This document shows positions 7,109 through 58,500 of a stretch of DNA of 64,000 bases, in pieces; positions within the stretch are counted from its first letter, which is position 1, and each line of letters begins with the position of its first letter. The stretch is from an uncultured Clostridia bacterium. Its GTDB lineage: Bacteria > Bacillota > Clostridia > TANB77 > CAG-508. Under the pieces are notes generated by a model. The model was not told the DNA's origin. It ran no database searches and saw only the letters and a list, made by a program, of their open reading frames with translations. The translations under genes were made by a program, and so were the position numbers. Location of the stretch: positions 20,179 through 84,178 of the forward strand of contig CALXZU010000002.1 in the NCBI GenBank assembly GCA_944393325.1, written 5' to 3'.

Positions 7109-8116
7109 TTAATATGTCAAGTGCTTTTGAGACAAAAAGTCTCCATCATCAAAACTTTCTCCTAACTCTGTTGACAAATATTTTTTATTGTCATCTGCAA
7201 ATATGGTTATAATATCTTTTTCCAGTTTATAACCCAATTTAATTGCTCCTACTAAATTTGCTCCTGATGATATTCCAACTCCTATTCCTAATTCTCTCGC
7301 CAATTTTTTTGCCATATTTATTGCTTCTTCATCACTTACTAATATAATATCATCTATCTTTTCCTTGTCTAAAAGTTCAGGTATGAAATCATCTCCTATT
7401 CCTTCTATTTTATGTTGTTCATACTTAATATTTTCTTTATTACTATTCTTTTCTATTTTCCCTTTTGCTTCTGATATTATTGGCATTTTTTCTGGCTCAA
7501 TTGCAACTATTTTTATGTCTTTATATTTTTCTTTTAATCTATCTCCTATTCCCATTAGTGTTCCGCCTGTTCCTACTCCTGATACAAACCCTCCTATTGA
7601 TTTTCCATTTTCTAATTGTTCTATAATTTCTTTTCCAGTTGTTTCATAATGTGCATTATAATTATCTTTATTACTAAATTGATTTACTAAAAATGCTTTA
7701 TTTTTTCTTGCAAATTTTTTTGCTTCTTCCACACACCTTATAAATCCTCCTTCTTCTTTAGAAATTAGTTTTACATTTGCACCATAACATTTCATTAATT
7801 TTATTCTTTCTTTACTTACCCAATCTGGCATAAATATATATACTGGATTATTATAATATGCGCCTATTGCTGATAAAGAAATTCCTGTATTACCACTTGT
7901 TGCTTCTACGATAGGCATTTTTTCTTTTAAAACTCCTTCTCTTTTTGCTTTTTCTATTATATATAATGCTACTCTATCTTTTATACTTCCTGTTAAATTA
8001 TAATATTCTAATTTTACAAATACATTTATTTCTTTTTCTATTCCTTTTTCATCTTCTCCTTTGTATTTAAATTTGATTTTTATCATTGGCGTGTTTCCTA
8101 TTAAATCATCTAACAT
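7109..8116 (-). CDS. PLP-dependent cysteine synthase family protein (CysK/CysM-like)
   Basis: LTGSIKDR lysine motif, SGNTG, glycine-rich GVGTGGT loop. Confidence 0.8.
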   Translation of the reverse strand: MLDDLIGNTPMIKIKFKYKGEDEKGIEKEINVFVKLEYYNLTGSIKDRVALYIIEKAKREGVLKEKMPIVEATSGNTGISLSAIGAYYNNPVYIFMPDWVSKERIKLMKCYGANVKLISKEEGGFIRCVEEAKKFARKNKAFLVNQFSNKDNYNAHYETTGKEIIEQLENGKSIGGFVSGVGTGGTLMGIGDRLKEKYKDIKIVAIEPEKMPIISEAKGKIEKNSNKENIKYEQHKIEGIGDDFIPELLDKEKIDDIILVSDEEAINMAKKLARELGIGVGISSGANLVGAIKLGYKLEKDIITIFADDNKKYLSTELGESFDDGDFLSQKHLTY

Positions 8117-8688
8117 TTTTCTTCACCTTCAATATTATTTTCACTTTTAGCTTCACTTATACACTTTTTATTTGGTTCTTCAAAACTTAAATACCAATTT
8201 ATTCCGTTTTTATTTTTATTTATATATTCTACTCTTTTTTCCAATTCCTCATATGTTTTAGGTGCTGGTATTATTACTGGCTGATTAGGCATCCAATTCG
8301 CAGCTGTAGCTCCTCCCATACAATCTACCATTTGTAATGCTCTTACCGTTCTTAATATTTCTGGTATAAATCTCCCAACATTCATTGGATATATTAATAT
8401 TGTTCTAATAACTTGTTTTTCATCTATTATATATACATTTCTAACTGTTTCTGTAGTACTTTCCTCATTTGAAATCATTCCATATCTTCTTGCAATTATG
8501 CTATTTCTATCTGCTATTATTGGAAATGATATTTTTATTCCTGTTCTGCAATATATATCATATACCCATGCTAAATGTGAACTTAAGCTATCTACACTTA
8601 AAGCTAAAATTTCTGTGTTTATTTCTTTAAAATATGTATTTGCTCTTGTAAATGCTATCATTTCAGTCGTGCAAACTGGGGTAAAATC
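8110..8688 (-). pseudogene. 1-Cys peroxiredoxin, 3' fragment (N-terminal ~50 aa removed by element insertion)
   Basis: In-frame upstream of the listed M the sequence reads ...EADFTPVCTTE-MIAF..., the peroxidatic Cys motif, then a stop. No start codon exists. The matching 5' fragment is at 16301..16462. Confidence 0.85.
8678..8688. repeat. attachment-site core copy 1 (ggggtaaaatc)
   Basis: Exact match to 16314..16324. Confidence 0.75.
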
Positions 8689-8705
8689 CGCTTCTTTGGA
8701 TGTAT

Positions 8706-10286
8706 TTATATTAGTTTTTTAATATCTGGTTTTAGTTTAAATCTAATTGTTTTATCTTTACTTATATAAATTTTATCTATTATCATTTGTAAAATCATTT
8801 TATTAGGTTTTTCTAAATCTATTATTTCATTAAAATATTCTACTGCTGTCTTTATCTTTTCCATTTTTTCTTCTAATTGTTCTTTTTCATCTTTTTTTAA
8901 TGTAGATTGTAAATATGATATATTTTTCTTTTTTTCATCTTCTAATTCCTTATATGTATTTTCTATAATTTCTCGTTCTATATTACTACTAGCTAGAGAT
9001 AAATCTTTTATCTTTTGATTAATTAGTAATTTATATTCCTCATTTAAAATATTTAGCTTGTTTTGTAATTTTAATTTGTTATTTCCTCTTTTATTTTGTT
9101 TAATTTCAATTTTTATATTTTTAATTTCTTCTAAATATTCTTTCTTTGTAAATTTCAAAAACTCTTTTAGATGAATTGATATATCTTTTTCTTTTACTTC
9201 ATGGCAACAGCAAGCCCTTGTTCCATACTGTCTATATTTTGAGCAATCATATCCTTTTTCAGGAACTTTTCTTTTAATCATTATTCCTGACATACCAGAG
9301 CCACATCCTTGGCATTCGCACATTCCTGAAAAATAATATTCTCTTTTTGTATTTGCTCCAGAAGTATTTTGTTTATTTCTCTTCTTTCTTATTTCCTGTG
9401 CCAAATCAAATACCTCTTTTGGAATAATTGCCTCATGATGGTTTTCAAATCTAAAATGTTCTTCTTCAGGTAATTTTACTACTTTTCCTCTAATGTTTAT
9501 ACTTTTCTTTTTATGAGTTATTAGTGTTCCTGTATAAATTTCATTTTTTAAGATGTTACTTACCATATCTTTTGTCCAAGACTTTTGAACTTTATGCTTA
9601 TATATTCTGCCTCTTTCTAAGTGTTTCGTTCTATAATATTCTGATGGAGTTGGATAATTATATTTTTCATTCAAAGCTTCACTAATCTTTTGAAATCCCA
9701 TACCTTCTTCTACATATAACTTAAATATTAGTTTAATTACTGGTCTTAGTTCCTCTATTACATATAGCATTGGCACATTATTTTTAAATATTTTTTCATA
9801 TCCATAGTAATTTCCCATAATAAGCCTACCATCTTTTTGTTTTGAATACATATGGTCTCTTGTTTTTCTTGAGCAATCTTTTACATATCTTTCATTAAAC
9901 CATGTCGTAATTCCAATAGTATCATCTCTATCATTTAGTACATCATAACTGCCACCCATTTCTGAAACTAGAATTAAGTTTTTTTGCATATTTTTAAATT
10001 CATCAATTAAAACTAAAACAAGTCCGTTGTTTCTGCCTATTCTTGATAAATCTTTTGCTATTACAACATCTATTTCTCCTTTCTGTACTTTTTCCATCAT
10101 TTTTGAGAACTCAGGTCTATTAAAGGTATATCCCGAAACATTGTCATCTATGTAGAAGTCATCATCAGAAATAAACCAATTACGTGAAATTGCATAATCT
10201 TTTATAATTCTTTTTTGTTCTTCTATGCTTGAGTAATTTTCTTTATCTTCATCTCTAGACAATCTACAATATCCTACAACTGTCAT
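8706..10286 (-). CDS. large serine recombinase (resolvase domain, recombinase domain, Zn-ribbon, coiled-coil)
   Basis: MTVVGYCRLSRDED catalytic Ser region, IAKDLSRIGRN, Cys-rich CECQGCGSG...CCCH, C-terminal coiled-coil. GGAGGG RBS before the internal ATG at ~10286. Confidence 0.85.
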   Translation of the reverse strand: MTVVGYCRLSRDEDKENYSSIEEQKRIIKDYAISRNWFISDDDFYIDDNVSGYTFNRPEFSKMMEKVQKGEIDVVIAKDLSRIGRNNGLVLVLIDEFKNMQKNLILVSEMGGSYDVLNDRDDTIGITTWFNERYVKDCSRKTRDHMYSKQKDGRLIMGNYYGYEKIFKNNVPMLYVIEELRPVIKLIFKLYVEEGMGFQKISEALNEKYNYPTPSEYYRTKHLERGRIYKHKVQKSWTKDMVSNILKNEIYTGTLITHKKKSINIRGKVVKLPEEEHFRFENHHEAIIPKEVFDLAQEIRKKRNKQNTSGANTKREYYFSGMCECQGCGSGMSGIMIKRKVPEKGYDCSKYRQYGTRACCCHEVKEKDISIHLKEFLKFTKKEYLEEIKNIKIEIKQNKRGNNKLKLQNKLNILNEEYKLLINQKIKDLSLASSNIEREIIENTYKELEDEKKKNISYLQSTLKKDEKEQLEEKMEKIKTAVEYFNEIIDLEKPNKMILQMIIDKIYISKDKTIRFKLKPDIKKLI

Positions 10287-10323
10287 TTTCCCTCCTTCTT
10301 GCCTGATATTGCTAGTTTCTATG

Positions 10324-10539
10324 TTAGCATACATGATGACTCAAGTCTACTTGTTTCGTAATTATTTTTTTAAGAATTTCGGGATAATTCTCTTTTCCAC
10401 TTACGAAAATGCTAACCTTATACTTTTGTTTCTTATATTTTTCAATTACTTCTTTTGTAGATTGTTTTTCTGATTCTTCATCAGTCAAATAAATTTGCAC
10501 ATATTTTTCATTTAAGATTTTATTAGAAGTAATTTCCAT
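10324..10539 (-). CDS. small hypothetical protein upstream of recombinase (possible directionality factor)
   Basis: 71-aa ORF overlapping the recombinase 5' end; no motif. Confidence 0.3.
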   Translation of the reverse strand: MEITSNKILNEKYVQIYLTDEESEKQSTKEVIEKYKKQKYKVSIFVSGKENYPEILKKIITKQVDLSHHVC

Positions 10540-10847
10540 CTTTTTAACTCCTCCATAATATTCCTCTTAAATACTATGCAAAAAGAAATTTAAAATTCTT
10601 TTCGTCTAAAAATCACTTCCAAAACCTAACACAAATTGTTTAAAAGCATCTACATATCACCTCCTACCTATTAAAAACACTAAAAAATTTCCAAATGGGT
10701 AATTCTAAGAATAAAAGTCCAAATTTTATTCTAATTGTTGCATTTTATGTCTTTTTACTAAATTATTTTTTATCTTCTCTACTATATACATTCCATTTTG
10801 CTATAAAAATGTCTAAATATTAAAAATAAAACATAAAAGTTTTATAA

Positions 10848-10893
10848 AAAAATAGGAGGCTAAGCATTATTTAATGCCTAACCTCGCTATAAA
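10848..10893 (-). terminator. intrinsic terminator after 10897..11652
   Basis: Minus-strand 13-bp stem (gagguuaggcauu/aaugcuuagccuc, two G.U) then U-tract. Confidence 0.5.
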
Positions 10894-10896
10894 ACA

Positions 10897-11652
10897 TTAT
10901 AAATCTTTACCGAGTTCTGTTCTTTTCATACAAAACTCTTTAAAATAGCATTCTTCACATTTTGGGCTTGTTGGTCTACAATATTCTCTACCAGCTACCC
11001 AAAAAGGAAGTGTTAATGAACCTGGAAATTCGTCACAAATTTCTCGTGCACTTGCTGTAACATCCTTAATATTGTCATTATCAGCAAGTCCCATCCTTAA
11101 AAATATTCTTCTCACATGCACATCATATGCAATATCTATGCAGCGAAGATTTTTTAAGTTAACACCAAAGTCACGTACCAATAGTAACGTTCCTAGTGCT
11201 GCTTTTTTGTGACTAATTCCCTTAAATTCTTCCAACCTAGCTATTATATGTTCTGCATTCAAATCATTTTTCCAAATGTTTTCAGCTTCTGAATTATAAT
11301 CTTCTACAACTTTTTTAATTGCAAAGAAAATATATTCAGCCATCTTTCTTGGATAACGATGTAATGCAGGTTTCTCTTTTATAATAGCTTCTAGAGATTC
11401 AGCACTTTCTTCTTTGGCAATTTTACCAAAGTCAAAATGCCCCAATCTTTTTGAAAGATAATAAGGTAATCTCCAAGCCATCTCTGCTTTTACTGATTGA
11501 TCTGAAATTAGTGCAATCAAAAAAGCATTCCAGTCTGAAAGCAAGAATTTTCTTTCTTCATCTTTTAGCATACTTAATATGCTATTGTCTTTAATAACTA
11601 TTTTAGACACCTCTTTGCATTTTTCGTTTAATCGTTCATAATACTTTTCCAT
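10897..11652 (-). CDS. HhH-GPD family (EndoIII/MutY-like) DNA glycosylase-like protein with Fe-S cluster loop
   Basis: C-terminal C-x6-C-x2-C-x5-C (CRPTSPKCEECYFKEFC), the [4Fe-4S] loop of the Nth/MutY superfamily. GC higher than host. Confidence 0.55.
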   Translation of the reverse strand: MEKYYERLNEKCKEVSKIVIKDNSILSMLKDEERKFLLSDWNAFLIALISDQSVKAEMAWRLPYYLSKRLGHFDFGKIAKEESAESLEAIIKEKPALHRYPRKMAEYIFFAIKKVVEDYNSEAENIWKNDLNAEHIIARLEEFKGISHKKAALGTLLLVRDFGVNLKNLRCIDIAYDVHVRRIFLRMGLADNDNIKDVTASAREICDEFPGSLTLPFWVAGREYCRPTSPKCEECYFKEFCMKRTELGKDL

Positions 11653-11663
11653 TTTTCCTACCT

Positions 11664-12599
11664 CTACTTTCTAAATTCTATTGGCCAATTGTCACCCATA
11701 ATTTCTTCTTGCTCTTTGTCTGTCAAAGCCCATTTTCTTGTCTTATCATACTTAGGCACTTTGATTTCACCCCAATCAACAATTTTCACAGGCTTATCCG
11801 TAAAAACTGTATTCAACATATATAGCTCTGCCAAGGTGTATTGATCTAGTCTATTCAATTCAGCTTCTAGATTAGTTGAATCAATACAAAGCCAGTACGC
11901 ATCAGACTTTGCGAGTAATGTGAGTCTATCCTTTAGATATTTTGACTTATCATCCGCAAATTCATGATACAAAAAATAGCTTAAAATATTCTGAGGTGAA
12001 ATAGGACAAACATGCTCTTTATAAGCCTGAACTCTCGCCCAATCAATATGTTTATAATTCACAAAATTTGCTCCTATATAAACTGTTTGATGGGTTGAAG
12101 ATTTATATGGAGTTAGCAAATTGTTGAAAATATCATTTCTGAAATCTTCATCTGTCATCCTGCTTAGCCACTCATCTAATTCCAAATAATTCATTTCAAC
12201 TTGTTCGCTTCCATAAATATTAGGAATAAATGTAGCTTTTTTATGCTTTACCTGACTCCATAGAAATATTTCAGCCATTATTCCTTCTGATAAAAGAGTA
12301 TTTGTATTACCATATACCCATAATCTATCAGAAAAAATTGCTAGAGTCAAACAGTCAGTCATGACATTAATTTTCTTTCCACCTAATGTTTCAGTAGAAA
12401 TGTAGTAACCCAATGCCATCTCTGGATTTAATGCAATCATATTATTTTTCAGCACTCTATTGCAAATTGCCAACATATGATGCATATCATCACCATCAAA
12501 AGATGTATAAACTACTTTCCGCAGAGGCTCTTGTCTAAATTCCTGAATAATCTGTTTTGTTTCTGATGTCAACATCCCATAAATTTTATCCTTGAACAT
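11664..12599 (-). CDS. hypothetical protein (middle gene of element cargo operon)
   Basis: 311 aa; 3-nt and 11-nt gaps to flanking genes imply an operon. Confidence 0.5.
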   Translation of the reverse strand: MFKDKIYGMLTSETKQIIQEFRQEPLRKVVYTSFDGDDMHHMLAICNRVLKNNMIALNPEMALGYYISTETLGGKKINVMTDCLTLAIFSDRLWVYGNTNTLLSEGIMAEIFLWSQVKHKKATFIPNIYGSEQVEMNYLELDEWLSRMTDEDFRNDIFNNLLTPYKSSTHQTVYIGANFVNYKHIDWARVQAYKEHVCPISPQNILSYFLYHEFADDKSKYLKDRLTLLAKSDAYWLCIDSTNLEAELNRLDQYTLAELYMLNTVFTDKPVKIVDWGEIKVPKYDKTRKWALTDKEQEEIMGDNWPIEFRK

Positions 12600-12602
12600 C
12601 TT

Positions 12603-13172
12603 TTATCTCCTTATACTTTGCATAATTAACTGTTGCAATGACAAGCATGACTTAATAGTGTAATCATTTACTATAACAATATCGAATAATTCCTTATTGT
12701 TATAAAAAAATTCCAGCTCGTCATCTATGTCCCTTAAACGCTTGTTCAAATCTTGCTGACTCATGTGTCTTGCCTCTAATTCTGCCTTTGTTCTTTCAAC
12801 ATCAATTGGCAAAATATAAACGCTTAAGACATTACTAAATTCTAATCTGAATTCACTTACATTTTTGTAAAACAATTCAGTAATTAAGTTGATACCCTTA
12901 TCACATAATTGAATCTGTGATTTTTTATATGCATACCAATTTCCAAACACCTCATTAACCACACAAAGTCTTCCAGAATGATTTTCTTGTTCGAACTCTT
13001 CTAATGAGTAGAAAAATTTGTCGACACCGTCTATTTCATTTTGGCGTCTCCCCCGAGTCGTTACTGAAATTAAAGATTGAAAATCTCTATTATTTTTCAG
13101 AATATACGATTTTAAGAAGGATTTACCTATTCCAGAAATTCCGGACAAAGTTACAATTTTACCTTTTTGCAT
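12603..13172 (-). CDS. guanylate-kinase-like P-loop nucleotide kinase
   Basis: P-loop SGISGIGKS, GMP-kinase-like TTRGRRQNEIDGVDKFFYSLEEFEQ. Confidence 0.6.
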   Translation of the reverse strand: MQKGKIVTLSGISGIGKSFLKSYILKNNRDFQSLISVTTRGRRQNEIDGVDKFFYSLEEFEQENHSGRLCVVNEVFGNWYAYKKSQIQLCDKGINLITELFYKNVSEFRLEFSNVLSVYILPIDVERTKAELEARHMSQQDLNKRLRDIDDELEFFYNNKELFDIVIVNDYTIKSCLSLQQLIMQSIRR

Positions 13173-13382
13173 GATACTTCTCCTTTCGCAACTGAAAAAT
13201 CTTATAATGTTTTATAGCCTCTCTCCTTAAAAAGTTTTTATTAGTAAAACTTTTTCATAATAATTTTACCAACAACAATATTATACAATATTTTCCATTA
13301 TTTTTTAATAGTTATGTAAATTTAAAATTGACTATTGTAAAAAAAATGATATAATATAAAAAAAATTTGGAGGTAATTTAAA

Positions 13383-13973
13383 ATGAAATTAATTTTAGCA
13401 TCAAATTCAAAAACAAGAAAAAACATTTTTGATATGGTTGGTTGGAAATATGAAATAATAACAAGCAAAGTAGAAGAACATAGTGATTCTACCGATCCCA
13501 AACAGTACGTAATTGACTTGTCAAAAGATAAAGCAAACTCAGTTGCTTCTCAAGTCAAAGATAAAGCACTAATTGTTGCTGCTGACTCTATTATATATAT
13601 GGATAATAAAAAGTTTAAAAAACCAAAAAGTAAAGAAGAAGCTTTTGAAAACATAAAGAAAATGAGCGGAAAAGTTAATTATGCTGTTACTGGAGTAACA
13701 ATAAAGGATTTATACAAAAATAAAGAAATTTCTTTTAGTGACACTACAGATGTATATTTCAAAAATGTTACTACTCAAGACATTTCTTGGTATGTGGAAA
13801 ACGAAAAATATTTATTAAATAGAGCAGGATATTCTATAGCAGGTAAAACATCTATTTTTATTGATAAAATAATCGGAGATTATTATAACATTTTAGGCAT
13901 GCCTATTAGTAAATTATATACAAAACTTAATGAATTAGGTTATACTATTTCGGATTTTGAAATGAAAGAATAA
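13383..13973 (+). CDS. maf: Maf/Ham1-type nucleoside-triphosphate pyrophosphatase (septum formation protein Maf family)
   Basis: N-terminal LILASNSKTRKNIF, typical Maf length and motifs. Confidence 0.8.
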   Translation: MKLILASNSKTRKNIFDMVGWKYEIITSKVEEHSDSTDPKQYVIDLSKDKANSVASQVKDKALIVAADSIIYMDNKKFKKPKSKEEAFENIKKMSGKVNYAVTGVTIKDLYKNKEISFSDTTDVYFKNVTTQDISWYVENEKYLLNRAGYSIAGKTSIFIDKIIGDYYNILGMPISKLYTKLNELGYTISDFEMKE

Positions 13974-13999
13974 AAATGCTTTTGTTTTATACAATATGT

Positions 14000-14108
14000 T
14001 TTGCAGGATCAGGGAGACGTCTCGGATCCCTGTAACTACCTAAAAACGTAGTTTTTAGCGGTCTACTCTTTAATTTCAGAGTAGACTGATGTACGTCTCG
14101 CTTTTTTA
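14000..14108 (+). ncRNA. GC-rich structured element (candidate small RNA / cis-regulatory RNA or protein-binding palindrome cluster)
   Basis: Local GC far above surroundings. 10-bp perfect palindrome GAGACGTCTC (~14014-14023) inside a 6-bp stem (caggga/tccctg). 9-bp perfect hairpin gtctactct/agagtagac (14061-14086). 3' acgtctc complementary to 5' gagacgt, ending cgcTTTTTT. Confidence 0.3.
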
Positions 14109-14110
14109 TG

Positions 14111-14150
14111 AAAAAACAAGTATAAATTTATATTTTTATACTTGTTTTTT
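14111..14150. terminator. bidirectional intrinsic terminator between maf (+) and 14155..14460 (-)
   Basis: 11-bp stem acaagtataaa/tttatacttgt flanked by an A-tract and a T-tract. Confidence 0.5.
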
Positions 14151-14154
14151 GGTT

Positions 14155-14460
14155 TTATTTAAGTTCTTCCTTTAGATTAATTCCATCTCTTAATCCTGCA
14201 AAATAATACTTTTTATAAAAATAATAACTCTCATAATCAATTGTTTCTATATAATCTTTTATTACTTTTCTAATGCTAACTTTTAACCAATTAAGATTAT
14301 ATGGAATTTTGTCTAATTCATCATTTAAAAGTTTAGATTTTTTACTTCTGTTTGCTTTGTCTTGACTCATAAATTTTTTATCATTTTCATCAATGAGAGC
14401 TAAGTCTCTTTCTCTTGCTTCAAATATTATTTCTAGCATGTTATAATTTTCTTTTTCCAT
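14155..14460 (-). CDS. hypothetical protein
   Basis: 101-aa ORF in element. Confidence 0.4.
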   Translation of the reverse strand: MEKENYNMLEIIFEARERDLALIDENDKKFMSQDKANRSKKSKLLNDELDKIPYNLNWLKVSIRKVIKDYIETIDYESYYFYKKYYFAGLRDGINLKEELK

Positions 14461-14511
14461 TTAACATCACCTCCAATTAGTTTGTGATATTAACTCTGTT
14501 CGAATTATTAT

Positions 14512-14946
14512 TCAAGTCTTTTCTATAAATAAATTATTAGCATATAAACTTGTCCAATCGAAATTATTATAATCCCTATGAGATTTATGTATTGATATTT
14601 TCTTATAATTTATTTTATTAATATTTAGTATATCTTTAACATTTTTATTAATAGGATTATTACAAATTTGTTTATCTGTATTAACATATTTATTAATAGG
14701 TGTAATTTTTCTCAAAGCAATTTCTCTTGAATTTTCTTTATATATCATTTGAATTTTTATATATTCTTTCTTTTTCAATGAATTTACTATTCTTGATGCT
14801 TGTATTTTTGTAATATCTAATAATTTACTTATATATGCGTTTGACATTATACATTCATTTTCTTTACTTAAATGTATAATCATAGAATATATAATTTTTT
14901 CTTTATCATTTAGTTTTGTATCTGTTAATACTTCATATGGAGCCAT
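14512..14946 (-). CDS. putative winged-helix DNA-binding protein (replisome-organiser/DnaD-N-like)
   Basis: N-terminal LNDKEKIIYSMIIHL...ISKLLDITKIQASRIVNSLKKKEYI resembles HTH/wHTH of phage or plasmid initiator proteins. Confidence 0.35.
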   Translation of the reverse strand: MAPYEVLTDTKLNDKEKIIYSMIIHLSKENECIMSNAYISKLLDITKIQASRIVNSLKKKEYIKIQMIYKENSREIALRKITPINKYVNTDKQICNNPINKNVKDILNINKINYKKISIHKSHRDYNNFDWTSLYANNLFIEKT

Positions 14947-14964
14947 ATTCCTTTAAATTCTTTC

Positions 14965-15000
14965 AATATTTATTTTCTTTCCAATCAATCGCTCATCAAT
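14965..15000. promoter_or_regulatory. ~35-bp conserved motif upstream of 14512..14946, repeated at 16170..16205
   Basis: ttttctt(t/c)(c/t)caatcaatcgctc..caat.gatt present in both upstream regions. Confidence 0.3.
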
Positions 15001-15094
15001 TGATTTCTTATCATTTTTATGACTTACTTGTTTTATTTAGTATATTTATCAAAATTCTATTTAAAATTTTAGAATAATATTTTTCATTATCTTT

Positions 15095-16075
15095 CTATCT
15101 CTCTTGTTCTTCAATCATTTTTTCTCTCATGTTACTATTAAAACATATTTTATGTGGATCTAGTTCGTATTTTCTAGCATTCCTGCTAATAATATCATTT
15201 AAGATTTTATATGGATTTTCTTCAGTTCTTTTATTTTCTATAGTACTATATGCTTCATTTATAGCATCTTCTAATAGCTCTGTAACCATATTATTATATG
15301 AGCCATACTTTTCTTTCATTCTTTCTGTTGGTTCTGTAGCATATCCTATCCAATTATCTATATATCCAGTAAGGATTGGTGGCTTATTACATCTAGATAT
15401 TAATTTTGGAAATCTATTGCCAATACTTTGTAAGATATTTATATATGCCAATAAATTTTCATCACTTGCATACATTACAATTGTATCATCTCTTTTCTTT
15501 TCAATTCCGTCATCAAATTTATAGTAAAAAGGAATTTCTTCTTTTAACGCTTCAATTGTAAATAATCCCAATAAACGATATGTATCATTTGGTTCTGGAT
15601 TTATGTATAATCTATGCTTTATATCCATATAATCTTCCTGCTTAGCACGTAATTCCCTTGAATAGACATGTACAAAACTTGTATTATTTTTAAAATAATT
15701 ATACCAGCAATATTGTTCTACTAATGGAAAACGATTAAATACTTGCTGCAATTCTTCATATGTATCTACATTTTTATCCTGTTGAGATAAAGAATCATAT
15801 AATTCATATATATTACCTTGATAACTTCCTCTTTGTTTTAAATCTAATAATTGCTGTTTACTTAATGATAATATATTATTTTTCCATACATTAAATAATA
15901 AAGCATACAGATTTTCTCTATAATCATATTCATATTTAAAATGTTTGTTTTTACTATTTTGTTTTATCAACTCAAAATATAAATTTTTATTCCTATAATC
16001 TGGTAATCTTCTTAATAAGTCACCATTAAACAACGGATTTTTTATACTATTATATAACTCTGTAAAATTTTGCAT
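15095..16075 (-). CDS. hypothetical protein
   Basis: 326-aa ORF in element. Confidence 0.45.
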   Translation of the reverse strand: MQNFTELYNSIKNPLFNGDLLRRLPDYRNKNLYFELIKQNSKNKHFKYEYDYRENLYALLFNVWKNNILSLSKQQLLDLKQRGSYQGNIYELYDSLSQQDKNVDTYEELQQVFNRFPLVEQYCWYNYFKNNTSFVHVYSRELRAKQEDYMDIKHRLYINPEPNDTYRLLGLFTIEALKEEIPFYYKFDDGIEKKRDDTIVMYASDENLLAYINILQSIGNRFPKLISRCNKPPILTGYIDNWIGYATEPTERMKEKYGSYNNMVTELLEDAINEAYSTIENKRTEENPYKILNDIISRNARKYELDPHKICFNSNMREKMIEEQER

Positions 16076-16169
16076 AATTTACTCCTATTTTTATATTATA
16101 TTTAGTATATTTTATCATGTTTCTTATTCACATACAATACCAACAATATAGACATATATCAAATTGTCT

Positions 16170-16205
16170 ACAATATTAATTTTCTTCTCAATCAATCGCT
16201 CCACA
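16170..16205. promoter_or_regulatory. second copy of conserved upstream motif
   Basis: See 14965..15000. Confidence 0.3.
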
Positions 16206-16300
16206 ATCGATTTTGTTCAATTTTTATTCAACTTTCGATAAACCCCATACCAGTATAAAAATATAAGCAATATCAGGATTTTTATTTATTCACCCAAAGA

Positions 16301-16462
16301 TTAGCATATTACCGGGGTAAAATCTCCTGGATGTGAAAATAATACAAGCCATTTTCCTTCATATTGTTTTAAATTTATCTTTCCCCATGTTGAACTAGCT
16401 TCAAAATTTGGTGCTTTTTCACCTATTTTCACATTTCCATTTTCTAATAATTCATAACTCAT
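16301..16462 (-). pseudogene. 1-Cys peroxiredoxin 5' fragment (53 codons) fused to element-derived stop
   Basis: AGGAG RBS then [53 protein letters not shown]. The sequence diverges from prx exactly after the DFTP core. Confidence 0.8.
16314..16324. repeat. attachment-site core copy 2 (ggggtaaaatc)
   Basis: Exact match to 8678..8688. Confidence 0.75.
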
Positions 16463-16606: not shown

Positions 16607-17134
16607 TTAAAAACCATATTCAAAAATTTCTGCTGGTTTCATATCTCCACAATCACAAATAGATTGAAAAGCCATTTTGTGTGCAACAATAATTACTGTA
16701 TCATAATTTTCTTTATATTTATTAATAACAGACATAACTCTATTTCTTAATTGTTCCTTTGTTTCCCAATTTCTTTTTTCGTTAATTGGATATACTCCAT
16801 GATTTTTAATATAATCATTATAATATTCCTGCATCTCTTCACCATTTTTGTATTGATATGTAAGATCTGGTTGCCATTCTCTTATATCTGGCTCAACTAC
16901 AATATCAAGTCCTGTTTCCTTAGATATTATACTTGCTGTTTGTAATGCTCTTGTATATGGTGAAGACACAATAATTTGTGCATTTTTTAATCTGATATCT
17001 TTTGATGTCTTTATAACCTCATCTATCCTTTCTTCTTTTAATGGTGCTAAATCATGTCCTTGACCTATAAATCCATGAGTATCTCCATATGTATAATCTG
17101 ATTTACCATGTCTAATTAAATAAAATTTTGCCAT
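16607..17134 (-). CDS. histidine phosphatase family protein (phosphoglycerate-mutase-like)
   Basis: LIRHGKS (RHG motif); start reassigned to MAKFYLIRHG preceded by AGGGAG. Confidence 0.75.
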   Translation of the reverse strand: MAKFYLIRHGKSDYTYGDTHGFIGQGHDLAPLKEERIDEVIKTSKDIRLKNAQIIVSSPYTRALQTASIISKETGLDIVVEPDIREWQPDLTYQYKNGEEMQEYYNDYIKNHGVYPINEKRNWETKEQLRNRVMSVINKYKENYDTVIIVAHKMAFQSICDCGDMKPAEIFEYGF

Positions 17135-17154
17135 TCTTTCTCCCTTATTACTTT

Positions 17155-18459
17155 CTAATCTACTATTTTTTCTATGTTTCCAATGCAATATAATGGTATA
17201 TTTATAAGACTTTCTTCTTTTCTGTAATTTGACATTGATGTTCTAATATTTTTAGTTGTTTTATATTTTTCTACAAAAGTTTTTAAACTTTTTGCTTGTA
17301 AATTTTCTTCTGATTTTACTTCTATTGGTATAATATCTATACCTAACTGTATTACAAAGTCGATTTCTGCTGTAGCCCTTTTAGCACTCCAATAATATAT
17401 TGGAATATCTTTATTTGATTTTAACTCTGTCAAAACAAATTGCTCAGTAAATGCCCCTTTAAATTCTGTAAAAATTTTATTTCCTTCTAACAATACTCTC
17501 TCGTCAATTCTTGTCATCGCTCCTAAAATTCCGACATCAAGAATAAAAAGTTTAAATGCACTTGTGTCTTGATAAGCTATAAGTGGAAGATTAGGTTTAT
17601 TTACTCTATCTACTTTATATATTAATCCGCAATCAATTAGCCATGATAATGCTAATTCATAATCTTTTGCTCTTGCTCCTTCTTTAATTAGTCCATAAAT
17701 AAATTTTTTATTTTCTTTTGCAAGTTGTGCTGGAATACTATTCCATAACATTTTCAGTCTTGGTACGATTTCACTTGGTGCATGTTTGGAAAAATCTTCT
17801 TCATATGAGTTTAGCAACCTTAATTGTGTTTCTCTTACTTTTCTAAAATTCTTAGTTTCTAAATATTTATTTATAACTGATGGCATACCACCAATAAAAT
17901 AATATTCTCTTAAATATAAAATTAATTTATCTCTAAAAACACTTATTAAATTCCAATCTTTTTTATTTAATATTTCTACTAATTGTTCTTCTCCTAATGC
18001 AAGTAAAAATTCTTTGAAATTTAGTGGATACAAATACATAAAATCCACCTTTCCTACTGGGAACGATGTTCCTTCATGTAATGCAACACCTAAAAGTGAA
18101 CCAGCTGCTATTATATGATATTCTCTTGCATTTTCACAAAAGTATTTAAGTGATGCAATGGCTTTTGGCACCTCTTGGACTTCGTCAAAAATTAGCAATG
18201 TGTCTTTTGCATCAATATCTACTTTTGTTTCTATCCTTAAACCTTGTATTATTCTATCTATATCAAAATCTGGTTCAAATAATTCTTCCATTCTTTTATT
18301 TCCATCAAAATTTATATATGCTACTTTTTTATAATTATCTTTACCAAATTCTTTCATTATCCATGTTTTTCCAACTTGTCTAGCACCTCTTATTATTAAT
18401 GGCATTCTGTCTTTAGAATTTTTCCATTCTTCCAATTCTTTTATTTTTTCACGATACAT
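17155..18459 (-). CDS. AAA+ ATPase with DUF4143-type C-terminal domain
   Basis: Walker A GARQVGKT, Walker B LLIFDEVQ; start reassigned to MYREKI after GGAGGG. Confidence 0.7.
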   Translation of the reverse strand: MYREKIKELEEWKNSKDRMPLIIRGARQVGKTWIMKEFGKDNYKKVAYINFDGNKRMEELFEPDFDIDRIIQGLRIETKVDIDAKDTLLIFDEVQEVPKAIASLKYFCENAREYHIIAAGSLLGVALHEGTSFPVGKVDFMYLYPLNFKEFLLALGEEQLVEILNKKDWNLISVFRDKLILYLREYYFIGGMPSVINKYLETKNFRKVRETQLRLLNSYEEDFSKHAPSEIVPRLKMLWNSIPAQLAKENKKFIYGLIKEGARAKDYELALSWLIDCGLIYKVDRVNKPNLPLIAYQDTSAFKLFILDVGILGAMTRIDERVLLEGNKIFTEFKGAFTEQFVLTELKSNKDIPIYYWSAKRATAEIDFVIQLGIDIIPIEVKSEENLQAKSLKTFVEKYKTTKNIRTSMSNYRKEESLINIPLYCIGNIEKIVD

Positions 18460-18546
18460 ATACTTCCCTCCATATTCATTATATGTATATTGTATCATAA
18501 TTATTACAAAAATTCAAATGACTTTTTAGTTTTTATCTACACTTTT

Positions 18547-52569: not shown

Positions 52570-55500
52570 TTAGAAAGTCGTACACAGACGCACGTAGGCG
52601 AGGTTGTTCACGGTGGTGCCGTGGATATAATAACCACTAAAAGCCGCAGTGTAGACGTTGTTAGTACGTAATTGCGAAGATGTCCAGTATTCACTTTTTA
52701 ACTTATAAGTGCTATAATCACTCCTTGTTATTTCTAAGCTTCCTGCAAATGCTACCCATTCTTCTCTTGATGGTACGAACCATCCTTGTTTTACTTGGTT
52801 TTGTATTACTCCCCACATATCTCTACTATTTTGTGATCCGTATCCATTAGAGTTCCATTTTGCTACCATATTGGCTGTATTTGCTTTTCCTGTTCCAAAA
52901 CTCTTCGATGTTGTACTACTATAATCACTCATTTTTCCTGCACTATTATACCAATAAAACAATGTCTTTGAATCTTGTTTTATGTCTTCCAATGCCATTA
53001 TATAGAATCTATCATTTCCACTTGTTCCAGCTACCGGTGCTATTAATTTTCCACTCTTATTTCCAAATCTACTATCACTATAATTTTCGTTTGTTATATA
53101 ATATTCTTTTAGTCCGCTTGCTATTGGTATACTATAACTTTCTTCTAATCCTGTTCCACTTCCTCCTACTGCTAAATCAGCAAATATAATTCCATCTGCT
53201 GTTTCATCACCATTTGTGTCTGCATAATTTCCTACGTATGATTCACTTGTTGGTATTGAAGCTGTTAATGTTATTTTTATAGTTATCTTTTTATTTCCAT
53301 TCCCTTCTTTTACTACTACGCTTGTTTCTCCTCCTGCTTTTGGTACTATTGTAAGTGTACTTCCAGAAATTGAAGCAGTTGCTATACTTGAATTAGGTGG
53401 GGTTACTATTTTAAATGTTCCATGATTTGTTCCTCCTAGTGTTACTCTTTGGTTTCCATCACTTACATTTGCTGTTACACTACTTGGACTCGCTGTTATA
53501 CTTGTTGCTAAAACTGATATATTTATTGTAGCTGTTTTATTTCCATTTGACTCTTGTAATTCTAAACTTGTTGTTCCTACTGTATCAGTTGGTGTTATCG
53601 TTAGGCTTGTTCCACTTATACTTGCTGTTGCATATGTACCATTAGGTGGTGTAATTATATTTAAATTTCCCATATTTTGTCCTTGTATTGTTACTGTTTT
53701 TGCTGAACCTCCTGCATATACTTCTACTGTTTGTGGTGTTATACTTGGTAAAAGTACTGTTACTTTTATTGTCACTGTTTTTCCTGCATTCGACTCCGTT
53801 ACTGTTATATTTGTTGTTCCTGAACCTTTTGGTGTTATTGTTACTACTTTATTACTTATACTTGCTGTTGCTACAGTAGAGCTTGAACTTGTTACACTTA
53901 GCTTTCCTGCATATGTTCCACTTATTGTTACTGTTCCTGTATTTCCTCCTACATATAATGTTAATGTTGTTTTATCTGCTGTTATTGTGCTATCTCTTAC
54001 AGTTACTGTAACTGTTACTTGTTGATTCGCATTTGTTTCTTTTAAAGTTAGTGTTGCTGTTCCTGTTGTTGTTCCTGGTTTTATTGTAAGTGTTGTTCCA
54101 CTTATACTTCCTGTTGCTATATTTGAATTACTAGTTGTAACAGTTAATCCTGCATAATTAGAACCTGTAATTGTTACTGTCTGATTACTTCCTCCTTTAT
54201 ATGCTGTTACACTATTTGTTGATACTCCTAATGTTACTGTTTTTACTGTAACTGGTATTGTAACTGTCTTTCCTCCATTTGCTTCTTTTACAACTATATT
54301 TCCACTTCCTTGTGCTTTTGGTGTAATTGTCAATGTACTACCACTTATACTTGCCTTATAATAATTTGTTTCTCCTCCTGATGTTATACTAAATGCTCCT
54401 GCATTTGTTCCACTTAATGTTATTGTTTTATTTCCTCCACTTACATATGCTACTACACTTGTTGGTTCTGCTTTTATTGTTGTTGTTAATACTTTTATAC
54501 TTACTGTTACCTTAGCATTTCCATTTGACTCTGTTATTATTACACTTGTTGTTCCTTCTGCCTTTGGTGTTATTGTAAGTGTATTTCCAGAAATAGATGC
54601 AGTTGCTATATTTGTATTTATTCCACTTAAACTTAAACTTCCTTTATTACTTCCTTCTATTGTTACTGTTTTATTTCCTCCACCTACATATGCTGTTACA
54701 CTTGTTGGATTTGCTGTAACACTTGTTGCTAATACTTTTATACTTACTGTTACTGTTTTTCCTCCATTTGCCTCTTTTACTACTACATTTCCACTTCCTG
54801 CTGCTTTTGGTGTTATTGTTAATGTACTATTATTTAAAATTGCTGTATAAGCACTAGTGCTCGCTCCTGATGTTATACTTAATGTTCCTTTATTATCTCC
54901 ACTAAGTGTTACAGTTTTTGCTCCTCCTCCTATATATGCCGTTATACTTGTTGGACTTGCTGTAAGTGTTGTTGCTTTTACTGTTACACTAATAGTTTTT
55001 TGCTTATTTCCATTTCCTTCTTTTACTACAATACTTCCACTTCCTACTGCCTTTGGTGTTATTGTAAGTGTACTTCCACTTACAGTTGCTGTATAGTAAT
55101 TTGTACTTCCTCCAGAAACTATACTAAATGCTCCTGCACTTGTTCCTCCTAATGTTACTGTTTGATTATTTCCTCCTACATATGCTACTATACTTTCTGG
55201 GCTTGCTGTTATTGTTGTTGCTTTTACTGTTACTGCTATTGCAACTGTCTTTCCTCCATTTGCTTCTTTTATTGTTATATTTGTCGTACCTGCTGCCTTT
55301 GGTGCTAAAGTTAATGTATCTCCATTAAGTGTTGGTGTTACATAAGAATTTGTTGCTCCTGAACTTATACTTAATGCTCCTTTATTACTTCCTGTTATTG
55401 TTACATTTTGGCTTGAACCACCTACATATAATGTTACATTTTTATTGTTTGCATCTAATGTAGTTTCTAATACCTTAATATTTATTGTTTTTTGTACATT

Positions 55501-58500
55501 TCCATTCGCTTCTTTTACCACTACACTTGTATCTCCTGCTGCCTTTGGTGTAATTGTTAATGTTTTATTACTTATACTTGCTGTTGCTATTGTTTCTTTT
55601 GGAGATGTTACTATACTAAATGCTCCTGCATTTGTTCCACCTAAAGTTACTGTTTTTGCTCCTCCTCCTACATATGCTGTTACACTTGCTGGATTTGCCG
55701 TTATACTTGTTGCTAAAACTGATATATTTATTACAGCTGTTTTATTTCCATTTGCTTCTTTTAATGTTACTGTTGTTGTTCCTGCTGCTTTTGGATTTAT
55801 TGTAAGAGTTTTATTTGTTGCATTTAAACTTACTGTTGCTTTCGTTGTATCTGGTCCTTTTTCTATACTTAAAGTTCCCATATTTGAACCAGAAATTGTT
55901 ATTGTCTTACTACTTCCTCCTACATATGTTGTCACACTTTGTCCCGTTATACTTGTTGCTAAAACTGTTATATTTATTGTAACTGTTGCATTTCCATTTG
56001 CTTCTTTTACTGTTACACTTGTTGTTCCTGAACCTTTTGGAGTAATTGTTAGCACTTTTGAGCTTGTATTTAGACTTGCTGTCGCTACACTTGATGTTGG
56101 TTGTTTACTTATACTTAAAGCTCCTAAACTAGTTCCATTTATCGTTACTGTTCTATTTGAACCATTTACATATGCTGTAACGCTTGTACTCGTTGCTGTT
56201 ATTGTACTTCTTATTACATTTATATTAATTGTAACTTTTTGGTTTCCATTTGCCTCTTTTACAGTTACACTTGTTTTTCCTGCTGCTTTTGGTGTTATTG
56301 TTAATGTAGAACCACTTAAAGATGCTGTTGCATATGCACTATTTGGCCCTGTTTCTATACTAAATGCTCCTGCATATGTTCCACTTATTGTTACTGTCTG
56401 ATTTGCTCCTCCTACATATGCTGTTACATTTGTATTAGTTGCTGTTATTGTTGTTTTTCTTACTTCAATATTTATTGTAACTGTTCTATTTCCGTTTGCT
56501 TCTTTTACTACTACACTTGTCTTTCCTGCTGCTTTTGGTGAAATTGTAAGTGTACTTCCACTTAAAGTTGCTGTTACATATGTACTATTTGGTGGTGTTA
56601 ATATACTAAATGTTCCTGCATTTGTTCCTGTTATCGTAACTGTCTGGTTAGATCCTCCAACATAAGCTATAACATTTTTATTGCTTGCATCAATTGATGT
56701 TGCAATTACCGTTACATGTATTGTAACTTCTTTATTTCCATTTGCTTCTTTAACTACTATATCTGTTTCTCCTGCTGCTACTGGTCTTATAGTAAGTGTA
56801 CTACCAGATAAAGTTGCTGTTGCAATTGTACTAGTTGGTCCAGTCTTTATACTAAATGCTCCTGCTTGTGTTCCACTTATTGTTACATTTTGTGATGAGC
56901 CACCTACATATAATGTAACATTCTTATTATTTGCATCAATAGATGTTGCTGTTACTGTTATACTTATTGTAGCTTTAGCATTTCCATTTGACTCTTTAAT
57001 TGTAACACTTGTATTTCCTGCTTTTACTGGTGTTACTGTAAGTTCAGTTCCATTTAAATCTACTGTTGCAATTCCAGTATTTGGTCCACTTTCTATACTT
57101 AGACTTCCCATATGTTGTCCTGTTATTTGAATGTTCTTACTTGCTCCACCTTCAAAAACATTTACTGACTGTGCATTTACACTAGTTGCTAAAACATTTA
57201 TACTTACTGTTACTTTCTTATTTCCATTTGACTCCATTACTGTTACACTTGTTGTTCCTGCTCCTACAGGATTTATTGTAAGTGTATTTCCTGATAGACT
57301 TGCTGTTGCAACTCCCTCTTTTGGTTTTCCACTAATACTTAAAGCTCCTAAATCTGTACCATCTATTGTTACTTGTCTTGAATTTCCTCCAACATATGCT
57401 GTTACACTCGAACTACTCACCTTTATATCACTTTCTATTACTTTAACACTTATTGTAACCTTCTCATTTCCATTTGCTTCTTTTATTGTTATACTTGTTG
57501 TTCCTGCTACCTTTGGTGAAATTGTAAGTGTTTTTGAATCTTTATCTAAACTTGCTGTTGCTATTTTTTCATTTATAGGTGTTTCTACACTTAATTCACC
57601 CATATAATTTCCACTTAAAGTTACTTGTTGGTTAGAACCTCCAACATATGCTGTTACACTTTTTGGTGTTGCTATTATGCTTGTTTTTCTTACTGTTACT
57701 GCTATTGTAACTGTTTGCCCTCCGTTTGCTTCTTTTATTGTTATATTTGTTGTTCCTGCAGCCTTTGGTGTTAAAGTTAATGTATCTCCACTAAGTGTTG
57801 GTGTTACATAAGAATTAGTTGCTCCTGAACTTATACTTAAACCTCCCTTATTACTTCCTGTTATTGTTACATTTTGGCTTGAGCCACCTACATATAATGT
57901 TACGTTTTTATTACTTGCATCTATTGAGGTTGCTAATACTTTTATATTTATTGTTCTTTGTACATTACCATTTGCCTCTTTTACTACTACACTTGTATCC
58001 CCTGCTGCTTTTGGCGAAATTGTTAATGTTTTATCACTTAAAGTTGCTGTTGCTATCGTGTCATTTGGTCCTGTTACTATACTAAATGCTCCTGCATTTG
58101 TTCCTCCTAATGTTACTGTTTTTGCTCCTCCACCTACATATGCTGTTACACTTGCTGGATTTGCTGTTATATTTGTTGCTAAAACTGATATATTTATTAT
58201 AGCTGTTTTATTTCCATTTGCTTCTTTTAATGTTACACTTGTGTTTCCTGCTGCTTTTGGAGTTATTGTAAGAGTTTTATTACTTGCATTTAAACTTACT
58301 GTTGCTTTTGTCTCATCTGGTCCTTTTTCTATACTTAATGTTCCCATATTCTGTCCTTGGATTGTTATTGTTTTTGCTTCTCCTCCTACATATGTTGTCA
58401 CACTTTGTCCAGTTATACTTGTTGAAAGTACTGTTATCTTTATTGTAACTGCTGCATTTCCATTTGCTTCTTTTACTATTACACTTGTTGTTCCTGATGC

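Follow-up and report, generated by a model that had tools for sequence, protein, structure and literature searches.

The modified deoxynucleoside triphosphate (dNTP) pathway of phage T4 comprises the dCTPase gp56, the dCMP hydroxymethylase gp42 and the deoxynucleoside monophosphate kinase gp1, and the S-2L-type pathway comprises MazZ, PurZ and DatZ together with a guanylate kinase step. In the bacimethrin (BcmA-D) and mildiomycin (MilA, MilB) pathways, an N-glycosidase resembling nucleoside-2'-deoxyribosyltransferases (NDTs), an S-adenosylmethionine (SAM) methyltransferase and a kinase are encoded in a small cluster. Enzymes of the fold common to DNPH1 and the NDTs work as dimers. ThsI of type VIII Thoeris, composed of a CMP-hydrolase domain and a tetratricopeptide repeat (TPR) region, was proposed to manipulate nucleotides in anti-phage defence (bioRxiv 10.64898/2025.12.03.692087). 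The locus analysed here is a 3.1 kb cassette within a stretch of 64,000 nucleotides (the window) from contig CALXZU010000002.1 of an uncultured Clostridia bacterium. The cassette is carried by an integrative element and encodes a guanylate kinase-like (GK-like) kinase, a 311-amino acid (aa) protein termed the hub, a glycosylase-like protein of the HhH-GPD type and a Maf protein. We tentatively read the three genes and Maf as a single pathway, complete in itself and spread by horizontal transfer, that would make a non-canonical nucleotide and keep it under control, a reading we prefer without holding it to be probable.

Recurrence of the cassette

The following genes were taken from the list of open reading frames (ORFs).

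10897-11652, minus strand: HhH-GPD-like protein gene, 251 aa
11664-12599, minus strand: hub gene, the 311-aa protein
12603-13172, minus strand: GK-like kinase gene, 189 aa
13383-13973, plus strand: Maf gene, 196 aa, divergent from the three-gene unit

The three minus-strand genes are tightly spaced, with 3 nt between kinase and hub and 11 nt between hub and HhH-GPD. An earlier sequence-only reading of the window had described such a packed trio beside a divergent Maf gene, and all four ORFs were found where it had placed them.

Non-redundant hub-encoding loci, 70 in number, were gathered from genome and metagenome scans and contig look-ups, and were searched with hidden Markov models built from the family alignments. 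The gene set recurs in these loci, fusions included, down to about 37% identity, and its linkage is far beyond chance. An HhH-GPD gene lies immediately downstream of the hub gene, or is fused to it, in 47 of the 54 loci with enough flank; a GK-like gene lies immediately upstream of the hub gene, or is fused to it, in 45 of 64. In these loci the cassette genes are linked and not scattered, and the suggestion of the sequence-only reading that they form one functional unit with a theme of nucleotide and base handling is borne out by the linkage and the fusions. Among the 37 loci with both flanks, the fourth gene encodes Maf in 23, a class-I SAM methyltransferase in 6 and neither in 8, and a CYTH gene is additionally present upstream in 6. 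The cassette methyltransferases are of the small-molecule type.

Fusions of the kinase to the hub, with the kinase N-terminal, make up about 40 clusters of proteins of roughly 500 aa. The hub is fused to HhH-GPD in P0101 and at loci L029, L030, L060 and L066, to CYTH in P0104 and to a SAM methyltransferase in P0138; weaker relatives of the hub domain are fused to NUDIX (P0241) or Ppx/GppA (P0196). Distant versions of the cassette carry a MazG-like pyrophosphatase instead of Maf (L078, L080), and CYTH stands in the pyrophosphatase role at L007, L013, L015, L027, L028, L074 and L076. NUDIX genes were found beside decayed copies. The GK-like kinase is replaced by a cytidylate kinase-like kinase at L078 and at L080, where it is fused to a methyltransferase. 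At L074, L076 and L077 the neighbours of the hub are CYTH and a membrane protein. Three predicted roles therefore recur with unrelated proteins, namely a triphosphate-cleaving enzyme, the hub and a nucleoside monophosphate (NMP) kinase; some loci have a methyltransferase or a DNA glycosylase in addition. Because two unrelated kinase families have been recruited, and because a kinase is fused to a methyltransferase, we argue that phosphorylation of a modified NMP would be a forward step.

The hub family is rare, with 169 representatives (E up to 1e-3) among 1.84 billion proteins, and window-type loci occur in gut and rumen metagenome-assembled genomes (MAGs) of Clostridia and Bacilli. Relatives of the hub were absent from IMG/VR, from the INPHARED phages and from the PLSDB plasmids, and for this reason the idea of a phage DNA-modification module was dropped. 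Neither the hub nor the glycosylase matched PHROGs. No system model of PADLOC-DB 2.0 was matched; the weak, generic matches of the kinase to VakA (1.4e-4) and of the hub to Cas6 (5.6e-3) were both set aside. A literature search found no description of the gene set. Together with the chance-level PADLOC matches, this agrees with the earlier reading, which did not recognise the cassette as a described system.

The hub, kinase, glycosylase and Maf proteins

An AlphaFold2 model of the hub, built on 19 homologues, had a pLDDT (predicted local distance difference test) of 93 and resolved two alpha/beta domains.

About 12189-12527, minus strand: hub domain 1, DNPH1/nucleoside-2'-deoxyribosyltransferase-like, DUF7768-type
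About 11700-12104, minus strand: hub domain 2, DNPH1/nucleoside-2'-deoxyribosyltransferase-like, DUF7768-type, diverged from domain 1

The two domains match each other in profile-profile comparison (hhalign, probability 93%, E 2.8e-7), which argues that the hub arose by internal duplication. Two hub homologues match Pfam DUF7768, one at each domain position; the window protein itself has no direct match in Pfam and is also without a match in NCBIfam. When the whole model was searched against the PDB with Foldseek, only poor global alignments were obtained (template modelling score, TM, at most 0.25). The search was uninformative because of the two-domain architecture, and the problem was solved by modelling domain 1 alone (pLDDT 87.6). 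The top 11 PDB matches of domain 1 were DNPH1, including the human protein, and NDTs (probability 0.99-1.0, TM 0.49-0.63); its matches also included the CMP N-glycosidases BcmB and MilB and, after these, TIR domains. By sequence and by profile, neither the whole hub nor either domain gave more than chance matches in the PDB.

The hub family alignment holds 44 invariant columns, including Y31, D82, S104-E-G-x-x-A-E110, Y174 and E258, and a strongly conserved insert, NPE-x-x-LGYY-x-ST...K, follows strand 2. In our own reading of the motifs on the model, Y31 (strand 1), D82 (helix 2) and S104/E110 would be placed like Y24, D80 and S98/E104 of DNPH1. A tandem pseudo-dimer is plausible for the hub because enzymes of its fold act as dimers. 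The protein had earlier been called uncharacterised, which holds for direct Pfam matches; the structure search gives it a DNPH1/NDT-like fold, and it is the hub of the module.

The kinase matches Pfam Guanylate_kin (E 1.5e-19) and misses the cutoff of the NCBIfam guanylate kinase equivalog TIGR03263 (101.8 vs 160.45 bits). The P-loop Lys (K14), the residues that contact the NMP phosphate (R38, R41, Y78) and the lid arginines (R135, R146; yeast numbering throughout) are invariant in 26/26 family members. The guanine contacts are lost across the family (E69 to V/T/L, S80 to Y/F, D100 to Y/F/H), and Y50 is replaced by an invariant K; the base-pocket substitutions are also visible in an alignment to Staphylococcus aureus Gmk (2J41). 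The earlier description as a GMP kinase-like P-loop protein is right as to the Guanylate_kin fold and the catalytic residues but does not extend to specificity, since the guanine contacts are replaced. From these residue patterns we read the protein as a predicted active NMP kinase for a base other than guanine. A role as a PhnN-like ribose-1,5-bisphosphate kinase was not adopted; the protein matches PhnN only weakly (24.8 bits), and its substituted pocket positions hold aromatic residues.

The glycosylase scores 22.3 bits against Pfam HhH-GPD (PF00730, E 1.8e-4), where the gathering score is 26.2. Many of its homologues at 50-57% identity carry a precomputed PF00730 match, and P0101 scores 39.7 bits. 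A partial match to TIGR03252 (88 bits) is far below the cutoff, as are the scores against the nth models TIGR01083 (25.1 vs 211.7 bits) and PRK10702 (19 vs 405). The C-x6-C-x2-C-x5-C cluster loop pointed out in the sequence-only reading is present as CRPTSPKCEECYFKEFC, and both the Asp and the four Cys fall within an alignment to the endonuclease III (EndoIII) structure 1P59. In 30 aligned family members the Asp of AYDxH is invariant, the Lys of GISHKKA is invariant or nearly so, and the Cys positions are conserved at 90% or more. The N-terminal motifs NAF..LISDQSVKAE.AW.LPY and KPALHRYP are the family's own. Because the EndoIII Lys, Asp and four-Cys loop are retained, a bifunctional glycosylase/lyase is predicted. 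Queuosine-type salvage, in which an HhH-like fold acts on a free nucleotide, was considered as a candidate role; the retained HhH and Fe-S features, which would serve DNA binding, speak against it. NCBI names the glycosylase homologues 'endonuclease III'. One such homologue (52% identity, L045, Clostridium botulinum SWQW01000007.1, 8001-8798), annotated endonuclease III, stands alone without hub or kinase in a region that holds HEPN, PIN and MazE genes.

Maf matches its Pfam family at E 4.8e-46 and passes the cutoff of the subfamily model TIGR00172 (165.5 vs 117.15 bits); it passes no equivalog model. In 23 cassette Mafs compared with a provisional Bacillus subtilis Maf sequence, the substrate-site motifs of the YhdE/B. 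subtilis type are altered, SPRR to S(K/R)(T/S)R and AYGIQ to GYS(I/L)A, and a C-terminal LGYxxxDF is shared. The gene is divergent in close Clostridia relatives, as in the window, and in Bacilli versions (about 46% identity) the kinase-hub fusion, HhH-GPD and Maf are encoded on one strand with Maf last. Maf had been described as lying next to the operon, which is correct as to position; given its presence in 23/37 loci and its own sequence signature, it is more than a neighbour. It is a conserved fourth member of the cassette and a predicted nucleoside triphosphate (NTP) pyrophosphatase.

Carrier element and genomic neighbourhood

The cassette lies on an element inserted in a peroxiredoxin gene. 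The element and its further features are as follows.

8678-16324, minus strand: integrative element with cassette, 7,636 bp, marked by a split peroxiredoxin gene and the repeated core GATTTTACCCC
8706-10334: large serine recombinase at one end of the element, with Resolvase, Recombinase and Zn_ribbon_recom domains
10856-10885, minus strand: terminator-like hairpin, 13-bp stem and T run, beginning 12 nt past the HhH-GPD stop codon
13173-13382: divergent intergenic region between kinase and Maf, 210 bp, promoter-like sites on both strands
14155-14460, minus strand: 101-aa ORF adjoining the HTH_36 gene
14512-14946, minus strand: HTH_36/replication-initiator-like gene, resembling phage replication initiators and DnaD-like loaders
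15095-16075, minus strand: HopA1-like ORF, 326 aa

The 11-bp core GATTTTACCCC is present at both junctions (8678-8688 and 16314-16324) and brackets the 7,636 bp. The interrupted peroxiredoxin gene is of the 1-Cys type; its 5' part (first 53 codons) is at 16301-16462 and its 3' part (from profile position 45) at 8110-8661. Insertion took place at the codons for D-F-T-P-V, immediately ahead of the catalytic Cys. The split gene, the repeated core and the serine recombinase confirm that the cassette is mobile-element cargo, as the sequence-only reading had supposed. The raised GC to which it also drew attention is real and modest, at 0.30-0.32 against 0.24-0.27 in the flanks; equal values are also found elsewhere in the window.

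The intergenic region contains a promoter-like site on the Maf side (plus strand, 13328-13355, TTGACT-16-TATAAT, 11/12 consensus, TG extension) and one on the kinase side (minus strand, 13308-13280, TTAAAA-17-TATAAT, 10/12 consensus). Both are consensus matches alone, and the number of sites is not above the shuffled expectation. The hairpin at 10856-10885 is the sole terminator-like site in 10300-14200 and is the predicted end of the three-gene transcription unit.

A related element occupies the same peroxiredoxin gene at L010 (5994-10650). It has neither recombinase nor kinase, its hub gene is truncated, and repeat copies of the 5' end of the peroxiredoxin gene (188 bp, 95% identical) flank it, with an intact copy of that gene on one side. 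The HTH_36 gene and the 101-aa ORF are common to this element and that of the window, and may have a role in element replication or regulation. The 326-aa ORF at 15095-16075 has only 21 database relatives, and several of the more distant ones (27-37% identity) match HopA1, an effector family in Pfam; at other loci the ORF does not accompany the cassette.

In a Bacilli MAG (L015, 6090-10697) the cassette lies between 353-bp, 98% identical copies of the uvrB promoter and about the first 92 codons, with a uvrB 5' stub upstream and the full uvrB gene downstream; L019 and L020 are alike. Such a copy is an island that lies at a repeated target site and does not itself encode an integrase. The position of the cassette beside uvrB is an insertion, because the 5' end of uvrB is duplicated there. 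Decayed copies were also recorded: the kinase gene is split in L042-L044, and the hub is truncated in L009, L010, L012 and L038. The decayed cassette of L009 (8000-14800), which in addition lacks kinase and Maf, is situated about 700 bp upstream of a type II CRISPR-Cas system (Cas9, Cas1). At L038 (10001-16472) a chimeric gene combines a radical-SAM domain with the C-terminal hub half. After it come the glycosylase gene, a DpnII-type restriction-modification (R-M) system, AIPR and a recombinase fragment, and a NUDIX gene is directly upstream. This radical-SAM::hub protein (P0048) was rejected as a new architecture and taken as a decayed copy because it holds the C-terminal half of the hub only.

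The chromosomal neighbours of window-type loci are variable. Enrichment in defence islands had been raised by the sequence-only reading; it was not apparent for the window's subtype, whose neighbours are mostly housekeeping genes. A defence context is clear in the methyltransferase subtype and weak for the window's subtype. Defence neighbours were also seen at L009 (Cas9, Cas1) and at L038 (DpnII R-M, AIPR). At L046, a complete Mycoplasmatota genome with the methyltransferase subtype, the cassette has a Lamassu system on one side and genes for DUF4238, PRTase-CE and a reverse transcriptase on the other. Within the same subtype, the gene after the cassette encodes a CAP12-type TIR protein in L030 and L060 and a PUA-like domain fused to a calcineurin-like phosphoesterase in L029 and L066; the paired loci share these neighbours although they are just 35-58% identical. 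At L070 the gene immediately upstream of the cassette encodes an 878-aa protein that has DNA methylase domains of the Eco57I/N6_N4 type.

Several further features of the window lie outside the element. A histidine-phosphatase-family gene is at 16607-17188 (minus strand), and a 447-aa ORF with the P-loop-like motif GARQVGKT is at 17155-18498 (minus strand). A His_Phos_1 gene is also found 9 kb downstream of the cassette at L035, and its likeness to the histidine phosphatase of the window is probably a coincidence. One ORF of 3,206 aa with a GTG start occupies 52570-62190 (minus strand) in a stretch of higher GC (0.33).

Candidate pathway and its relation to known systems

The linkage, fusions, fold, residue patterns and mobility given above are observations; what each enzyme acts on, which way flux runs and what the cassette does for its host we infer, and the substrate would be an NMP with a non-standard base. 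DNA modification, nucleotide sanitising and anti-phage action, the functions offered by the sequence-only reading, are all candidates. Maf, or elsewhere a MazG-like, NUDIX or CYTH protein, would cut the nucleoside triphosphate to the monophosphate. The hub pseudo-dimer would then break the base-sugar bond of the monophosphate and exchange or remove the base, with E110 of the S-E-G-x-x-A-E motif as the proposed nucleophile. The GK-like kinase would phosphorylate a non-standard monophosphate that host kinases would refuse, and the EndoIII-like glycosylase/lyase would act on the same base in DNA, most simply safeguarding the host genome. The synthetic direction is favoured because cassettes almost always include a kinase, which was drawn on two occasions from different families and occurs fused both to the hub and to a methyltransferase, in parallel with the phage dNTP-modification triads. 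The patchy, mobile distribution of the cassette makes its use in conflict with phages or competitors likely. A more specific form of this pathway, which we rate as unlikely, is a conflict system of a kind not yet described, in which a nucleotide-level deoxyribosyltransferase and its dedicated kinase would make the non-canonical nucleotide by base exchange at the monophosphate level. The product would be an antiviral or antibacterial analogue or a base of the cell's own DNA, the glycosylase would protect or edit the genome, and TIR or PUA-like proteins would be partners in the methyltransferase subtype.

Several points weigh against a synthetic pathway. The likeness of the hub to DNPH1 and NDTs is at the level of the fold only (Foldseek E about 1e-3, TM 0.49-0.63), and with hhalign neither hub domain was significantly related to a provisional sequence of human DNPH1 (probability <1%). 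Since sequence methods miss the relationship to DNPH1, the assignment of the hub Tyr, Asp and Glu to catalysis is offered as a suggestion from their placement. The reference sequences for yeast Guk1, Escherichia coli Nth and B. subtilis Maf are likewise provisional, and the 1P59 and 2J41 alignments back them partly. Activities, substrates and phenotypes are predictions for all of the cassette proteins. The cassette has no base-making gene, so a donor base must be assumed; Maf and the kinase would oppose each other if they acted on the same nucleotide; and most characterised NMP-acting members of the hub fold are hydrolases, which fits degradation equally. The 144 ORFs within 4 kb of cassettes are mostly housekeeping genes with few defence genes, and several cassettes in Bacilli MAGs sit among rpsO-pnp, ezrA, smc, tsaE and uvrB.

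Degradation is the core of the main alternative, which we consider doubtful though credible. Here the cassette would intercept a foreign non-canonical nucleotide at each level, for instance a nucleoside antimetabolite or a modified dNTP made by a phage. The triphosphate would be destroyed by Maf, a MazG-like enzyme or NUDIX, a near-equilibrium kinase would drain diphosphate to monophosphate, the hub would hydrolyse the monophosphate irreversibly, and the glycosylase would excise base that had reached DNA; where present, the methyltransferase would block re-salvage of the free base. Maf, MazG, NUDIX and DNPH1 are classic house-cleaning families, and the best structural matches of the hub include the hydrolase DNPH1 and the CMP N-glycosidases. 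A DNA glycosylase fits the scheme naturally, PUA-like domains such as that conserved beside L029 and L066 are readers of modified bases, and a mobile, patchy distribution suits a resistance or defence trait. A dedicated kinase would not be expected in such a scheme, yet it is nearly always present and often fused, and elsewhere it comes from a second family and is once fused to a methyltransferase. The methyltransferase fusions look biosynthetic, and any foreign nucleotide would be hypothetical. Removal of canonical nucleotides, by contrast, would make the cassette an effector set for abortive infection or nucleotide depletion: on infection the pool would be collapsed from NTP through NMP to base and sugar phosphate, and the glycosylase/lyase would damage DNA. 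This would resemble defence by dCTP deaminase or dGTPase and the ThsI effector, whose CMP-hydrolase-type domain was proposed to manipulate the pool (bioRxiv 10.64898/2025.12.03.692087). The conserved CAP12-type TIR neighbours of the methyltransferase subtype and the defence island of L046 are consistent with it, as is the divergent transcription of Maf in the window, which makes separate regulation possible. We nevertheless regard depletion as quite unlikely: a domain that could act as sensor or trigger is missing from the cassette, the altered base pocket of the kinase gives it no part in draining canonical pools, no defence-island enrichment was apparent for the window's subtype, and the family is not in the PADLOC models.

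The housekeeping neighbours in Bacilli MAGs (rpsO-pnp, ezrA, smc, tsaE, uvrB) would suit an ordinary operon of guanylate kinase, endonuclease III, Maf and a salvage deoxyribosyltransferase in reduced gut Firmicutes, of which the mobile copy in the window would be incidental. The name 'endonuclease III' given to the glycosylase homologues by NCBI points the same way, and NDTs serve salvage in lactobacilli. Such an operon is highly unlikely in our view, given a kinase that has lost its guanine-binding residues and fails the equivalog cutoff, a glycosylase at 25 bits against an nth cutoff of 211.7, and the great rarity of the hub family. The copies, moreover, have repeats at their borders, ride on a recombinase element or are in decay, and the adjacency to uvrB results from an insertion that duplicated the uvrB 5' end. 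The hub-glycosylase pair is the tightest link of all (47/54 loci), with overlapping genes and true fusions, and both proteins handle N-glycosidic bonds. These facts could be accommodated by base replacement in DNA, or a restriction-like activity, in which HhH-GPD removes a DNA base and the hub and kinase install another or recycle the excised base to the pool; the cassette at L070, just downstream of the 878-aa methylase protein, would agree. No HhH-GPD or NDT-like enzyme is known to insert DNA bases, however, and GK-type kinases phosphorylate phosphate groups, not sugar hydroxyls. The distant hub versions without a glycosylase keep pyrophosphatase and kinase, which points to substrates that are free nucleotides, and the methyltransferases are of the small-molecule type, so that we judge base replacement extremely improbable.

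Should the pathway prove to make or intercept an unusual nucleotide, the growing number of immune and antagonistic systems that act on nucleotide pools would gain a new enzyme logic, in which a monophosphate-acting N-glycosyl enzyme is coupled to a dedicated kinase, pyrophosphatase and DNA glycosylase. DUF7768-type proteins would then have a function, as would a branch of EndoIII-like glycosylases that is uncharacterised at present. Being small and self-contained, with natural fusions, the cassette is easy to clone and assay, and it is frequent enough in gut Firmicutes to bear on phage-host or drug-nucleoside interactions in the microbiome.

Among described proteins, hub domain 1 has the alpha/beta fold and the order of secondary structure elements in common with DNPH1/Rcl, the NDTs and MilB/BcmB. 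Those enzymes work as dimers, whereas the hub joins two domains in one chain. The hub differs from DNPH1 and NDTs in the lack of detectable sequence similarity, in its tandem duplication with a diverged domain 2 and in its NPE-x-x-LGYY-x-ST...K insert, and its gene is as a rule found together with those of a kinase and a DNA glycosylase. The glycosylase has the HhH motif, the positions of the catalytic Lys and Asp and the C-x6-C-x2-C-x5-C loop in common with endonuclease III and the uncharacterised TIGR03252 family, but it falls far under both cutoffs, carries N-terminal motifs of its own and is sometimes fused to the hub.

Of published ideas, ThsI comes closest, though it is tangential. ThsI was likened to the hub by its broad enzyme fold, not by homology comparison, and TIR genes are conserved beside the methyltransferase subtype of the hub family. 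In contrast to Thoeris, the cassette has neither TPR nor ThsB, and its neighbouring TIR is of the CAP12/Pycsar type and absent from the window's subtype. The enzyme combination of the bacimethrin and mildiomycin pathways is like that of the cassette, and BcmB and MilB are among the structural matches of hub domain 1. The cassette differs from these pathways in having no hydroxymethylase, in a kinase that is NMP kinase-like and not ThiD-like, and in the presence of a DNA glycosylase and an NTP pyrophosphatase.

In the phage modified-dNTP pathways, as in the cassette, an NTP pyrophosphatase works with an enzyme that converts NMPs and with a kinase reserved for the resulting NMP. The converting enzyme of the cassette is DNPH1/NDT-like and not a homologue of thymidylate synthase or PurA, and a DNA glycosylase is added; the cassette is bacterial, has no matches in IMG/VR, INPHARED or PLSDB, and is known from its genes alone. 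House-cleaning joined to base excision, as with human DNPH1 acting on hmdUMP together with SMUG1, or with MutT, Maf and MazG, offers by analogy the same set of pyrophosphatase, NMP N-glycosidase-like enzyme and DNA glycosylase, which may likewise be aimed at one aberrant base. Those enzymes are encoded by unlinked, broadly conserved housekeeping genes, whereas the cassette is one rare mobile operon with a kinase and sometimes a methyltransferase.

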